From positions 54,664-118,663 of the IMG/VR virus record IMGVR_UViG_3300043409_002154: a DNA stretch of 64,000 nt; one strand, 5' to 3'. The stretch is from a virus. Below, piece by piece: positions 19,966 to 30,101 of the stretch. A program made the translations under genes and the position numbers. Under the pieces are notes generated by a model. That model saw only the letters and a list, made by a program, of their open reading frames with translations. It had not been told where the DNA came from and searched no databases. Position 1 is the stretch's first letter, and each line of letters begins with the position of its first letter.

Positions 19966-20541
19966 TTATAATAAAATTTCTAATCTGATATCATTATTTG
20001 GTATAATGTCATCGTCTAAATTATTATCAGGAATATTATATGAAATTATATCATTATTTGGTATTGCAATATCTGTTAAATCATTTGATGGAATATTTGT
20101 TGGTGTTGGTGTTGGATTAACTGGGTCAACACAACACGGAAAATCTGAAACATAACAAGATGTAAATTCTAAATCGTCAGCAATAAACGAATCTTGTATA
20201 TTAATATACAATTTTTCTCTAGTTGGAGTAATTAAAACACCATCACTATTTCTTAACATGAATTGACCTTCAAACCTTCCCGTTTTACTAGTATCTTTTG
20301 AAGTGAATTGATAATAAATATAATATTCGGGTTCAGCGTTTGGTTCATCAAAAGTTTTTTCGACAAACCCTGCAGGTCTAGATGAAATTTTTGGTATTCC
20401 ACTTTCAATATCGGTCATTGAAAAGAATATCGATGAAACTTCAATTAACTTCATAAAGTTATTGTAATCACTTCTACCGTCTTTAACAATTTGCAATTTT
20501 AATAAGGGTAACGTTGAATTTTTTTTAATTATAAATTCCAT
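19966..20541 (-). CDS. BppU-like (baseplate upper protein N-terminal fold) structural protein with a PT and IPNND repeat tail
   Basis: FIIKKNSTLPLL...YQFTSKDTSKTGRFEGQF pattern; C-terminal PTPTPT. Confidence 0.55.
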   Translation of the reverse strand: MEFIIKKNSTLPLLKLQIVKDGRSDYNNFMKLIEVSSIFFSMTDIESGIPKISSRPAGFVEKTFDEPNAEPEYYIYYQFTSKDTSKTGRFEGQFMLRNSDGVLITPTREKLYINIQDSFIADDLEFTSCYVSDFPCCVDPVNPTPTPTNIPSNDLTDIAIPNNDIISYNIPDNNLDDDIIPNNDIRLEILL

Positions 20542-20631
20542 CTAAATTTTATTTATAAATACCTGAGAAAACAAAAATATTAACATCCGATATTGGATGA
20601 ATTTAATTAAAAAAAAGTAATAAAGATTAAA

Positions 20632-22308
20632 TTAACATTCTTTTCTTAATTCCGCCGCGTAATGATGAAATCTATGATGCTCAGTAGGCGTTAATAATAA
20701 TATTCCGGGTTTTATTAGACCTTTTACTGTTTCTTGATAAGCGTAGGACATTAATGTTTGTTCAAACGGAGATTGGAATTTTGTTTCCAAATAACATCTA
20801 AAATTACCTTCTTTTGTTAAAAGAATTGGCCAATTACATAAATAAATATCACCTGATGCGTATGGTAATCCTTTATGTGATTTAATGTTTTTGAATACCG
20901 TATTAGGAGCATTTGGGTCTAATCCTTGAACAGGTAATTTTGGTTTTTCAGGCCAATTAGTTTCTCTAAATGATTGTGGGGTATTATACCAAGAAAATTG
21001 GATATCGTTAGACCCATAAAATTCAGTAAAGTTTAATTTTAAAAAATCAAAATTTTCTTTCTTTAAAATCTCTAATGATTTTTGATATAGGTTAGGAACA
21101 TATCTATTGAAACCATTTCTACAAACCTCACCTTTTTTTGAATAAAACTCCATGTCATCCTCGTAAAAATAATAGGCTGATAAATCTGTTGTATCAAAAT
21201 GTTCAGCAATATAAACTCGGCCTCTAACAATACCAAGATTTTCACCAGTACCAATCCTTTCAAACCCATATTCCTCACAAAGTTCTTGGTATCTTGGGGT
21301 TGTTGTTAAATCAGTAGAATTATCCAGTAAAAATTTTCTAGGTTTAAGTATAAAATCTTTATCGTATTCTAACATTGATTTAACCAATGTCTCAAATTGA
21401 TTTGGGCTATTAAAGGTAATAACATAAAGACCTACTTTATTTACGTCTAAATTATTATTAAGTAATATTTTACCTTCTGACTTAACTTTTAATTCATCGT
21501 TTTTTAAATCTTCAAAAAACTTACCAATTAATCCGTTTTGTTCAATTTCAAAATAATTTATTATGTCTGGATGTTTATAACACATAATAGAAAAAAGACT
21601 TTCTTCAGTTCCCATGTACCCTTCATCTAATGTTGACGATAATAATCCATAATAAATTGAATTAATGTCTGATATAGTATGTTTAGGACCACCAAAAAAT
21701 CCACCTCTAGCGACTTTATCAACTTTATTACCGGCAATTGAATTTAATTTATTAAAATCAAATCCGTGAATTTCTGTTTCCGCTTGATATGGAAAAGTTA
21801 TAAAAGAAAATTTTGAAATATACTTAGAAAGTTTATTTAAAACCTTATCATGTGTAAAGTAACCAGGGTGAACAGTATTTGTTAAACCGGCATCAATCCA
21901 AAACATGTATTCGGAATCAAATTTGTCTAAAATTTTAGCGTCATGAATTAAAAATATTTTACTCATGACTAATGGATTGTACATTTCTAATTTAGCTTGA
22001 GTAGACTCACCTAACCAACCCGCTTTATTGTACCAATCAGGGTTTGTTCTAATAGTTTGTATTTTATCAAAATAATTGTTTGATTTAAACCAAGACACAT
22101 CTCTTAAAATAAATTGAGTGTTTGATGGTGAACGTCTTTCCGATACAAATTTTTCTAATTCAGAATCCCCAAAAATTATTAAATTATTATCAATTTTTAA
22201 TAATTGGTCAAACTTTTCTAAATAATGTGAAAATGTTCTAGACCAACCTTCAGTAAGTTCATCTCTTTTAATATTCCAAAGACCTGTAACTAATGTAATA
22301 TTATCCAT
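20632..22308 (-). CDS. HtrL/YibB-like glycosyltransferase fused to a second GT-A-like domain
   Basis: ITLVTGLWNI, SKIFLI, FWIDAG, GGFFGG and GTEE motifs. The second domain has LYVITFN, LLDNS and FYEDD. Confidence 0.7.
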   Translation of the reverse strand: MDNITLVTGLWNIKRDELTEGWSRTFSHYLEKFDQLLKIDNNLIIFGDSELEKFVSERRSPSNTQFILRDVSWFKSNNYFDKIQTIRTNPDWYNKAGWLGESTQAKLEMYNPLVMSKIFLIHDAKILDKFDSEYMFWIDAGLTNTVHPGYFTHDKVLNKLSKYISKFSFITFPYQAETEIHGFDFNKLNSIAGNKVDKVARGGFFGGPKHTISDINSIYYGLLSSTLDEGYMGTEESLFSIMCYKHPDIINYFEIEQNGLIGKFFEDLKNDELKVKSEGKILLNNNLDVNKVGLYVITFNSPNQFETLVKSMLEYDKDFILKPRKFLLDNSTDLTTTPRYQELCEEYGFERIGTGENLGIVRGRVYIAEHFDTTDLSAYYFYEDDMEFYSKKGEVCRNGFNRYVPNLYQKSLEILKKENFDFLKLNFTEFYGSNDIQFSWYNTPQSFRETNWPEKPKLPVQGLDPNAPNTVFKNIKSHKGLPYASGDIYLCNWPILLTKEGNFRCYLETKFQSPFEQTLMSYAYQETVKGLIKPGILLLTPTEHHRFHHYAAELRKEC

Positions 22309-27828: not shown

Positions 27829-27950
27829 GTTTAATAATTTTATAAAAATAATAACTAAAAATAGAATAATGTGTACATTTTTAAAAAATTATTTTGAGAT
27901 AATTTGGTTATAAAAATAACCATTAATTTGACTAAAGGTGTTGAGGTAGG

Positions 27951-30101
27951 TTATACAATTTCATACGAAAAATCATCAGTTTCGCATGAATCTATAAAAC
28001 AATTTGGACAATCAGGGTTAAACATTCTAAATGTAGTATTACTTATTTTAAAATTATGTTTAATTTCTGGCGAAGAAAGAGGTTCAACGTACATTCTAAA
28101 TTGTGAAATACCCCCATCAAAAGACCCTGCAAAATTTTGTTCGATTAATATATTAGTGCTTAACCCACTTAAAGTTGTACCACTTAAATCCGAATTCGGT
28201 AAACATTCCGGGTCTTGAAAAAATGGTGAAGACAATCCGGTTAAATTTTCTCTAAGGCCTTGAGTTCCTCCACCCCAAGAGATATTAAAAGGGACTCCAA
28301 GTTGTTTTTCTTTTTCAGTATTTAATGCTCTTGGTATAATTTCTTCAAAATCTTCAATCGTATGAAAAAGTTTACCGTTTACGTAAAATTTTAATTTTCC
28401 TTTTCTATATTTTTTATCAATCAACCATCTTTCATTTAGATTAACAATCTCAATTTTTTCTGGAATTTTACCATCTACCTCAGTATAAGGAACTGTTATT
28501 AATGATTGACTATTATTAACTAAAGATTCCAAAAATTCTTTTTTAGTGATATTATCTAAACCTCCTTTATATTTTAAATCACAAGTTTCAAACCAAGTAT
28601 ATCTTTCCCAAACAGCGTTAAATTGGAACCAATGTTCTTGTTCAAGAAAATAAGAATTAATTGATTCACAATAATCATAAATTCTATTTGTTGAACAATA
28701 TTCATTAATAGTGTATCCAGTACTATATGTTATTCCAGTTGTTGAACAAGTCCCTGTTGTAATACAATCACCAGTAAATCTTAAAACTTTAACACAAATT
28801 TTAGGGTTTTTAACGTCTCCTGATAATCTAAACGACATAGCATTTGATATGGAATCATATAGTGGGTCAGTTTCGCACGTATTTTCAATTGAAGTGAAAC
28901 CAGTATAACATTGGTCACAAACGGGACAATCCGGAGTATGCGTTGAACAAGTTGGGGTACATAAAGGGGTTGTAGTTGTACATGAGGTTGGTGTTGAACT
29001 AGGTGTTGGAGTTGGAGTCGGCGTTAATTCAACTTCAGACTCACATATATGTGTTTTACATTCCCATCCGCAAGTTTCACACGGATTATTTTGACAATCA
29101 CATCCACAATTGACTTCTATTGATTTATTAACGTCTCCATTACAAACTGGACACCCATAACTTAAATGAGAGTCATGTACCCCATCCTTAGACCTTTGAG
29201 GGTAAACAAATAAACATCTTGAGTTTGTTATATTTCTGTTACAACATGCACATGTTTCAAAATTTTCCATTCCTTCGGTTACTCTAGTATAACCTGTGTA
29301 ACATTTTGGATTTCCACTAGCATAATGATAGAATTTATTTTCGGCTCTTGTTCCAAAATAAAAAAAAGTATTTTTATTTTCTGGGTAAATTTCATTTAAT
29401 GTGGTTTGTCCGGTAGATGGGAAATATTCATCAATAAGTCTTGGTTTTAAAATCATTTCAACGGTCCAACCTTTATTGACTCTTTCCGGAAAAATTTCAT
29501 AATCATGACCAAATAATTTATAAAACCCTTGATAAAACCCACCATATAAATCATGATAATGTCCTCCATAAGGGGTGGTTTTACTTACAACTTCATACAA
29601 AACAGTTTTATCAAAACCAGAAAAAGAACTATTTTGACTGGTATATCCTGTTATTTGAAATAATTTAAGTTTTTTATCATATGATAATCTATTAAACATT
29701 ACTTCATCGGATAACACCCCTTTAGTAAACGTGATAGATTTCCCAGTTATTGAATTAACTAATCCGTTATCAATACCGGTTAACCCAATATCACATACGG
29801 TTGTTGATGTCATACAATTCAAATCATCATTATTAATGTTATAAAAATTTTTAGATATTAAAACATTATTTAAATTGTACACACCATAAGTTAACGTTTG
29901 CATTTGACAGGACCCGCTATAATTAATATCAAAGTATATTGGTAATTTATTACCGTATGTTTGAGCAATTAAATAAGGAGAAAAAACAACTTCTTGATTA
30001 AACCCAGTTTCATCTGAGGTTAATGACATGTCATATAGTTCCAATTTTAACTTTGGAAACAAATTTGAATTAACGTACTGATTGATATTTGAGTATGCCA
30101 T
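27951..30101 (-). CDS. Large Cys-rich structural protein with a LamG/ConA-like core and PT linker
   Basis: GWTVEMILK, LKFYVNG, ISWGGG and FDGGISQFRMY..PLS lectin-like motifs, plus TPTPTPTPSSTPT. Likely start is MAYSN at 30101. Confidence 0.6.
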   Translation of the reverse strand: MAYSNINQYVNSNLFPKLKLELYDMSLTSDETGFNQEVVFSPYLIAQTYGNKLPIYFDINYSGSCQMQTLTYGVYNLNNVLISKNFYNINNDDLNCMTSTTVCDIGLTGIDNGLVNSITGKSITFTKGVLSDEVMFNRLSYDKKLKLFQITGYTSQNSSFSGFDKTVLYEVVSKTTPYGGHYHDLYGGFYQGFYKLFGHDYEIFPERVNKGWTVEMILKPRLIDEYFPSTGQTTLNEIYPENKNTFFYFGTRAENKFYHYASGNPKCYTGYTRVTEGMENFETCACCNRNITNSRCLFVYPQRSKDGVHDSHLSYGCPVCNGDVNKSIEVNCGCDCQNNPCETCGWECKTHICESEVELTPTPTPTPSSTPTSCTTTTPLCTPTCSTHTPDCPVCDQCYTGFTSIENTCETDPLYDSISNAMSFRLSGDVKNPKICVKVLRFTGDCITTGTCSTTGITYSTGYTINEYCSTNRIYDYCESINSYFLEQEHWFQFNAVWERYTWFETCDLKYKGGLDNITKKEFLESLVNNSQSLITVPYTEVDGKIPEKIEIVNLNERWLIDKKYRKGKLKFYVNGKLFHTIEDFEEIIPRALNTEKEKQLGVPFNISWGGGTQGLRENLTGLSSPFFQDPECLPNSDLSGTTLSGLSTNILIEQNFAGSFDGGISQFRMYVEPLSSPEIKHNFKISNTTFRMFNPDCPNCFIDSCETDDFSYEIV

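Follow-up and report, generated by a model that had tools for sequence, protein, structure and literature searches.

A GT60-led gene cluster with an exchangeable cassette in an uncultured jumbo phage: a candidate pathway for mucin-type O-glycosylation of Thr/Pro-linker proteins

Glycosyltransferases (GTs) of family GT60 are known from protists as polypeptide alpha-N-acetylglucosaminyl (GlcNAc)-transferases, among them the mucin enzyme of Trypanosoma cruzi and the enzymes of Dictyostelium, including the cytoplasmic one directed at Skp1 hydroxyproline. Phage-encoded GTs have been described in mycobacteriophages, where they decorate the phage's own virion proteins at the C-termini of capsid and tail-tube subunits (Freeman et al., 2023, via PMC12619734), and jumbo cyanophages carry GT clusters that combine several GT families with sugar-nucleotide enzymes and carbamoyl- and methyl-transferases and are polymorphic between related phages (PMC7824862). 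Here, we analyse a cluster led by a GT60-type enzyme in the last 64 kb of the IMG/VR virus record IMGVR_UViG_3300043409_002154 (118,663 bp); this stretch is called the window, and window positions are used unless stated otherwise. The source is an uncultured aquatic jumbo myovirus of low guanine-cytosine (GC) content from a very abundant clade. We lean, with moderate confidence, to the reading that the cluster carries out a cytoplasmic, GT60-initiated, mucin-type O-glycosylation of the phage's own Thr/Pro-linker proteins, with a tailoring cassette that varies between strains. The locus resembles the mycobacteriophage system in its phage-encoded GTs and in the decoration of the phage's own virion proteins, which is proposed here, and differs in its candidate acceptors, the Thr/Pro linkers of fibre-like proteins. 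It has the mixture of enzyme types and the polymorphism of the cyanophage clusters, but is led by GT60 and lies among Thr/Pro-tract genes, and the passages of PMC7824862 on those clusters mention neither GT60 nor tracts nor mucin.

The GT60 gene (26578-27828, minus strand, 416 aa) covers nearly the full PF11397 profile, as the protist enzymes do (E = 1.4e-73; 248.8 bits against a curated cut-off of 21; profile positions 2-45 and 95-349 of 352), and has Thr/Pro-rich candidate acceptors next to it. Like the cytoplasmic Skp1 enzyme the phage protein is soluble; it is unlike protist GT60 in being encoded by a tailed phage, in having some 120 additional C-terminal residues that the profile does not cover and in the recombining tailoring cassette that follows it. 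The partner prolyl 4-hydroxylase of the Skp1-type, hydroxyproline-directed subgroup was not found in the 118.7-kb record, which is about 40% complete (CheckV), nor were prolyl or lysyl hydroxylase, 2OG-Fe(II) oxygenase or P4H families among the open reading frames (ORFs) of this record. The DxH motif (D93-S94-H95) is invariant in all 55 aligned GT60 sequences, including ORF334 of phage XacN1, and DxH takes the place of DxD in both GT27 and GT60, families that have polypeptide Ser/Thr O-glycosylation in common (PMC7185993). The protein forms the conserved left frame of the locus, and we propose that it is an initiating polypeptide GlcNAc-transferase. A metagenome protein search with it gave 7236 matches at E 1e-5 or better; the top 120 were close relatives only, so that they do not place it relative to the protist enzymes, and no solved structure was found among PDB sequences.

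GT60 heads eight co-oriented genes on the minus strand (20632-27828), and the tight packing that a first-pass annotation had reported was borne out, with spacing from a 3-bp gap to a 32-bp overlap. The operon is separated by 122 bp from the upstream gene for a 716-aa protein and by 90 bp from the downstream gene for a 191-aa protein. Of the enzyme families named in that annotation, six of eight were recovered above curated Pfam cut-offs, as judged by bits (GT60, FkbM, GT_PLOD, GT10, RMNT_CmcI and HtrL_YibB). After GT60 follow an FkbM-family methyltransferase (25945-26574, 209 aa; PF05050, E = 1.4e-12, 48.5 bits against 22.7), which also matches NCBIfam TIGR01444 (49.3 bits against 37.7), and a possible methyltransferase of 212 aa (25329-25967) with a sub-threshold MetW signal only (E = 1.1e-3, 19.1 bits against 21). 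Next are a 245-aa protein with a PLOD-type GT domain and no hydroxylase domain (24623-25360; PF25342, E = 2e-15, 57.1 bits against 27), a GT10 (fucosyltransferase-type) enzyme of 327 aa (23653-24636; PF00852, E = 9.7e-12, 45.3 bits against 23.9) and a 237-aa ORF (22940-23653) that had been called a GT-A enzyme and for which Pfam, PHROGs, NCBIfam and PDB sequences gave no match. A methyltransferase of the CmcI/rhamnosyl-O-methyltransferase type (22311-22937, 208 aa; PF04989, E = 1.1e-9, 38.7 bits against 23.2) and a two-domain HtrL/YibB-type protein (20632-22308, 558 aa), all of them on the minus strand, complete the operon. The latter had been described as a double GT, and this stands for its first half, with HtrL_YibB confined to residues 3-252 (PF09612, E = 1.4e-15, 58 bits against 24.1); its C-terminal half gave a language-model lead only (GT2, on 36% of one cluster's members, score 0.96), and a PDB sequence search gave no match. 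The protein falls below the equivalog-level NCBIfam cut-off (62.6 against 264.9) and is thus a member of the HtrL/YibB family rather than a YibB equivalent. Promoter-like sites (98, with 78 expected) and terminator-like sites (3, with 4.1 expected) were scanned, a scan which the AT-rich DNA makes uninformative.

Both flanking genes carry Pro-Thr linkers, as had been noted: in the 191-aa protein PTPTPT spans residues 143-148, and in the 716-aa protein TPTPTPTPSSTPTS spans residues 360-373. The motifs TPTP/PTPT occur 27 times, in 6 of the 101 ORFs of the record, well beyond the mean of 1.5 and maximum of 6 in 500 within-protein shuffles. The co-occurrence of GT60 with PT-repeat proteins is much stronger in related phages than in the window itself. 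In all 67 loci with enough upstream sequence the ORF directly upstream of GT60 is co-oriented with it, and in 54 of these it contains PT repeats or Thr runs, which corresponds to 38 of 48 distinct proteins. Of the ORFs upstream of the cluster 128 of 323 bear tracts, as do 53 of 241 downstream of it, compared to none of the 324 within it. The upstream proteins often start with either of two small N-terminal modules (about 58-72 residues), the tract following directly after.

The 191-aa modular protein (19966-20541, minus strand) consists of an N-terminal domain of about 135 aa, the PTPTPT linker and IPNNDI-type repeats, and is a candidate virion-attached acceptor. Its N-domain is conserved (39 sequences, mean column identity 81%), and in 31 of 42 distinct homologues this domain is followed by Thr runs or by PT repeats that can extend over several hundred residues, with variable end domains thereafter. 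In two loci (L164 and L194) GT60 directly abuts the 191-aa homologue, which has long tracts there. The protein has no Pfam sequence match, and tblastn of its N-domain against GenBank phages gave none. Its structure predicted by AlphaFold2 (AF2; predicted local distance difference test, pLDDT, 80.3; predicted template modelling score 0.70) shows the N-domain as a beta-sandwich, which VIA-align matched to the baseplates of 80alpha (Z 8.5; root-mean-square deviation 2.9 over 103 residues), a lactococcal phage (4v96, Z 8.1) and NF5 (Z 8.0), to the neck of Sf14 (Z 7.8) and to the N-domain of TP901-1 ORF48 (Z 7.6), with generic immunoglobulin (Ig)-like chains at about Z 7, so that its likeness to phage anchoring domains is suggestive only. 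Foldseek matches in the PDB had E values of 9.5e-4 to 1.3e-3 and template modelling scores of 0.41-0.48, and BFVD yielded 116 matches at E 1e-3 or better, including BppU-domain, minor-tail, tail-fibre and neck-passage proteins. The predicted fold of the N-domain is thus suggestive of phage baseplate and neck anchoring domains, and of the two flanks once called structural-looking it is the 191-aa protein that retains this description. For the 716-aa protein, AF2 with a 24-sequence alignment gave a pLDDT of 36.6, which is unusable.

That second flanking protein is Cys-rich (27951-30101, minus strand; homologues start at the ATG at 30101) and is likewise a candidate acceptor. Its near-identical copy in L005 has 35 Cys, and its family counts 1805 matches, with the linker kept near residue 357 in 65%-identical homologues; forms of about 945 aa carry an additional C-terminal Peptidase_C1 domain. 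Beyond these, the protein gave weak Laminin_G_3 signals only (E = 0.026, and an atlas lead to the same domain), and its alignment profile returned a chance match only among PDB sequences (E = 0.55).

The conservation of the operon was followed in the best 80 of 418 IMG/VR GT60 relatives (GT60 74-100% identical; contigs up to 322 kb). In 75 of the 80 loci GT60 and the HtrL protein are encoded on one strand, and the 191-aa homologue is present in 73. In the reciprocal search from the 191-aa protein, 50 loci had at least 9 kb of upstream sequence; all 50 had GT60 no more than 10 kb away, and 46 had HtrL. The six inner genes are almost never common to the relatives: the FkbM and 212-aa genes occur in L005 only, which is the same phage; the PLOD-type gene is found there and, at 29% identity, in L061, and is absent from the other 78 loci; GT10 is present in 3 of the 80; and 8 other loci have a cassette ORF resembling the 237-aa one (28-50% identical). 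The distance from GT60 to HtrL takes 45 different values, from 848 to 7018 bp. When 150 co-oriented ORFs from 39 representative gaps (three near-duplicate loci removed) were searched against Pfam at E 1e-3 or better, 71 were matched and 79 were not; of the matched ORFs, 70 belonged to sugar-active or sugar-tailoring families and the remaining one hit crystallin below threshold. These cassettes hold GTs of the GT2, GT7C, GT10, GT11, GT25, GT31, GT34, PLOD-GT and RXYLT1 families, together with carbamoyltransferase, GNAT, DegT, HAD plus nucleotidyltransferase, epimerase and FkbM, CmcI, FtsJ and MT24 methyltransferase families. Blastn against L004 and L022 gave 94.7-96.3% identity up to 26570, at the end of GT60, none at all from 26569 to 22860, and 80-90% from 22859 onwards. 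Such breaks between near-identical phages indicate a cassette swap bounded by recombination (22860-26569, without DNA similarity to phages otherwise about 95% identical), and its right boundary falls inside the CmcI-type methyltransferase gene (22311-22937). The initiate, extend, fucosylate and methyl-cap pathway put forward in the first-pass annotation is therefore not a fixed one, its six inner genes being a swappable cassette, and the fucose, hydroxylysine and methyl-cap roles would follow from family names.

A hypervariable middle between conserved ends also resembles an O-antigen locus, and the main rival explanation, which we regard as unlikely, is that the cluster builds or remodels an envelope polysaccharide of the host (O-antigen, capsule or other), for example to block superinfection, the Thr/Pro-tract genes being syntenic bystanders. 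The polymorphic GT clusters of jumbo cyanophages have been read in this way, as diversifying the outer polysaccharide and so pre-empting attachment by other phages (PMC7824862), the names HtrL_YibB, GT25 and GT9 are associated with lipopolysaccharide (LPS), and a second cluster 6 kb away includes a GDP-mannose dehydratase, a WbuC-type cupin and a membrane-anchored GT25. Against this, searches of all ORFs in the 118.7-kb record and of the 150 cassette ORFs of relatives revealed no Wzx flippase, Wzy polymerase, ABC-transporter or initiating phosphoglycosyl-transferase family, although the host could supply them, and all eight enzymes are soluble, with no membrane segment detected in them or in three flanking proteins (hydrophobic 19-residue window of at least 1.6). 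Polypeptide Ser/Thr O-glycosylation is the mode common to GT60 and GT27 (PMC7185993), and tract proteins, 40% of upstream ORFs compared to 0% in the cluster, are paired with GT60 again in XacN1 and in some bacteria.

In the glycosylation of the phage's own linker proteins that we favour, the soluble GT60 would start the chain by attaching one sugar to hydroxyls of Thr (or Ser) within the Thr/Pro-rich linkers of modular fibre or decoration proteins; to judge by its family, this sugar would be GlcNAc taken from the UDP-GlcNAc of the host. The acceptors would be the 191-aa family, the 716-aa family, the family with small N-terminal modules and large tract proteins elsewhere in the genome. Enzymes of the cassette (the PLOD-type GT, GT10, the 237-aa protein and up to three methyltransferases) would extend and tailor the chain, and the conserved two-domain HtrL protein would catalyse a step common to all relatives. 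With recombination exchanging the cassette between near-identical phages, the glycan would vary among strains in a serotype-like manner. Acceptor, sugars, order of steps and virion location are what we infer from the genes and their neighbourhood.

The same arrangement recurs in a second lineage. The only GenBank phages with GT60 are the Xanthomonas jumbo phage XacN1 and its relatives Xoo-sp13, CM1 and RAS14, the last two being phages of Stenotrophomonas (47-49% identical), and the same four carry the two-domain HtrL protein at full length (about 40% identical). XacN1 has the order GT60 (ORF334), carbamoyltransferase, two ORFs, HtrL (ORF330), in a block that faces the baseplate block and its 3313-aa ORF325, with PT repeats at residues 3083-3160. 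As in our phage, variable inner genes stand between GT60 and HtrL, near polB and beside baseplate genes, with a giant PT-repeat protein close by. The XacN1 group is unlike it in the inner genes themselves, in lacking a 191-aa homologue by tblastn, and in its gammaproteobacterial hosts and much higher GC. XacN1 virions show at least two glycoprotein bands by periodic acid-Schiff staining (PMC5852040, text and legend of Supplementary Fig. S4), and the sections of that paper on its gene content speak only of 'two glycosyltransferases', with no GT60 assignment and no link to PT tracts; the virion proteome of XacN1 is deposited as PXD008065 (PMC5852040). These observations bear on another alternative, that the enzymes glycosylate non-virion proteins, either of the host (for takeover or evasion of defence) or phage effectors that stay in the cell. 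Membership of GT60 and solubility would suit any cytoplasmic protein acceptor, and a virion location of the tract proteins would follow from fold resemblance only. We nevertheless hold this alternative to be improbable, given that tract proteins lie among baseplate and fibre genes both here and in XacN1 and that the virions of the latter stain for glycoprotein (PMC5852040).

Bacterial genomes also contain GT60 loci, of which a sample of 39 (41-81% identical) was surveyed. By a looser criterion, 8 of the 39 had a Thr/Pro/Ser-rich ORF within 500 bp and 13 had one within 8 kb. A stricter flag marked 6 of 71 GT60-adjacent ORFs compared to 5 of 307 others (odds ratio 5.6; Fisher p = 0.0076, an approximate value, since the loci are not phylogenetically independent). 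In addition, GT60 copies 65-81% identical to that of the window occur on low-GC contigs (L088-L096, one of them 230 kb) labelled as metagenome-assembled genomes of Saprospiraceae, Bacteroidia, Bacteroidetes and one Melainabacteria; the contigs probably come from phages and were binned with bacteria, and their labels perhaps hint at the host.

The operon lies beside the gene for a family-B DNA polymerase (15949-18732), as in XacN1, and PMC12619734 (citing Pyle et al., 2024) refers to DNA hypermodification by GTs of phages. That the GTs here hypermodify bases of the phage DNA with glycans, allowing escape from restriction, is nonetheless very improbable in our view. The 118.7 kb of the incomplete record yielded no base-hydroxymethylase or thymidylate-synthase-like family, GT60 is tied to polypeptide glycosylation (PMC7185993), and such a role leaves both the sugar-type methyltransferases (CmcI, FkbM) and the association with tract proteins unexplained.

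Taken together, O-glycosylation of the phage's own linker proteins is partly supported by GT60 with its DxH motif, solubility, the lack of lipid-carrier machinery, the enrichment of tracts at the flanks, the fold of the N-domain, XacN1 and the bacterial loci. Several observations weigh against it. The linkers that flank the cluster in the window are short (6 and 14 residues). Tracts are missing from 13 of 67 upstream neighbours and from 11 of 42 homologues of the 191-aa protein, in loci that keep GT60 all the same, and in 26 of 39 bacterial loci the surrounding 8 kb held no Thr/Pro-rich ORF. All 80 + 80 viral loci represent one clade, so their synteny is not independent evidence, a weakness shared by the bacterial comparison, and the fold matches of the N-domain (Z 7-8.5) are just above many generic Ig-like ones. 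The Schiff-positive bands of XacN1 were not assigned to proteins and could be co-purifying polysaccharide. The family names HtrL_YibB, GT25 ('LPS biosynthesis protein') and the GT9 annotation in XacN1 are associated with LPS, and hypervariable cassettes fit a host-surface glycan equally well (PMC7824862). A weak terminator-like hairpin (20599-20584) stands between the HtrL and 191-aa genes, although such sites are not above chance. The earlier claim that virion proteins are decorated thus keeps the backing of GT60 and its DxH, solubility, tract association and XacN1, while the alternative of a host-surface polysaccharide stays beside it (PMC7824862).

Further tract and stalk proteins were seen around the operon and elsewhere in the genome. 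Directly downstream of the 191-aa gene, a 357-aa protein (18856-19929, minus strand) has an LCIB/C-type beta-carbonic-anhydrase-like domain (PF18599, E = 1e-25) and a 58-residue N-terminal module that is 43% identical (E = 4e-10) to that of a PT-tract protein (L009:7403-8458); a 51%-identical copy is present in L072. A 186-aa protein (54374-54934, plus strand), recognised by the tract scan, starts with a Thr-Pro tract of about 60 residues and is another candidate acceptor. Outside the window, a 1221-aa SprB-repeat protein (C1:8919-12584, minus strand; L084) with several long TPTxTPT tracts is encoded between a collagen-like fibre and baseplate genes; the SprB repeat is a repeat of Bacteroidota gliding adhesins. 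In relatives, a papain-type Peptidase_C1 head sits on either stalk family (L026, L048 and L060 for the 191-aa family; P0125 and others for the 716-aa family) and a leucine-rich-repeat-like head on a stalk protein in L038, which suggests that end domains are shuffled between stalk scaffolds.

The second glycan cluster (33815-48654, plus strand), 6 kb from the operon, is interrupted by exonuclease and dUTPase genes, and an HNH/NUMOD3-type homing-endonuclease-like gene (32803-33762, plus strand) lies between the two clusters. Its members include a phrog_7162 GT, a GT2_5+GT4 fusion, a 657-aa GT2, a second GT10, a WbuC-type cupin, a GT25 with an N-terminal membrane segment, a methyltransferase and a further GT2. 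It also encodes a GDP-mannose 4,6-dehydratase (43442-44416, plus strand; PF16363, E = 8e-111; TIGR01472, E = 1.2e-111), a possible source of the GDP-6-deoxyhexose donor for the GT10 enzymes, including the one in the operon. A DegT-type aminotransferase (42599-43198, plus strand) may be split or unusually short: its 199-aa ORF matches two separate parts of a 360-position profile and is followed by an overlapping 85-aa ORF (43188-43445, plus strand), and relatives have similar DegT forms of 213-214 aa.

The rest of the record is that of a contractile-tailed phage, with genes for a 1194-aa sheath, tube, baseplate hub, baseplate J, gp25 and a 2055-aa collagen-repeat tail fibre, and with a family-B DNA polymerase, ribonucleotide reductase, DnaB, UvsX-like and gp32-like proteins. 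The GC of the window sequence is 25-33%, and megablast found no DNA-level similarity of the locus to GenBank phages. The tail sheath (2677-6261, minus strand) is unusually long, sheath profiles matching its last 300 or so residues and not the first 890 or so, and a 516-aa protein (10949-12499, plus strand) contains a complete Fe/Mn superoxide dismutase at residues 37-226 together with some 290 residues without a family match. The collagen-triple-helix-repeat fibre (C1:688-6855, minus strand; L084; Collagen, E = 6e-192) lies outside the window; it shares the genome with the PLOD-type GT domain, and no lysyl hydroxylase was found there. The idea that the PLOD-type enzyme must act on hydroxylysine of this fibre was rejected, as the record yielded no hydroxylase and 78 of the 80 related loci lack the gene. 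A Bacteroidota host is hinted at by the SprB repeat and by the Saprospiraceae-labelled contigs with GT60 relatives. In being uncultured, large and aquatic, with a family-B polymerase and hints of Bacteroidota hosts, the phage is similar to the 'Moraphages', large freshwater phages with predicted Bacteroidota hosts and four core GT orthogroups of unresolved function (PMC12619734).

Few examples of glycosylated phage particles are known. Virion glycosylation by phages and mucin-type initiation by GT60 have each been described before, and their combination in tailed phages with a recombining cassette appears to be undescribed: literature searched outside subscription journals yielded no link of GT60/PF11397 to phage virion glycosylation or Thr/Pro tracts, and one preprint lists GT60 among viral CAZymes without comment. 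More tentatively, and with less than even confidence, we envisage an abundant freshwater jumbo-phage clade whose virions display fibres and enzymes, with papain-like peptidase, carbonic-anhydrase-like, lectin-like and leucine-rich-repeat heads carried on Thr/Pro stalks, and coat them with a mucin-type glycan that is methylated. A GT60-initiated pathway in the cytoplasm of the host would produce this glycan and cassette recombination between near-identical phages would reassort its composition, giving a 'serotype' system like O-antigen loci whose GT60...HtrL frame is also present in Xanthomonas and Stenotrophomonas jumbo phages. The question can be addressed directly in the cultured relative XacN1, which shares this frame and has Schiff-positive virions. 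If the reading is true, mucin-type O-glycosylation, with an initiating transferase and Thr/Pro stalks, would exist in tailed phages that are very common in lakes, its enzymes would constitute a soluble toolkit, compatible with the bacterial cytoplasm, for O-glycosylating Thr/Pro linkers, and a sugar chain that varies between strains would bear on adhesion of large phages, their resistance to proteases and grazers, and their evasion of recognition.

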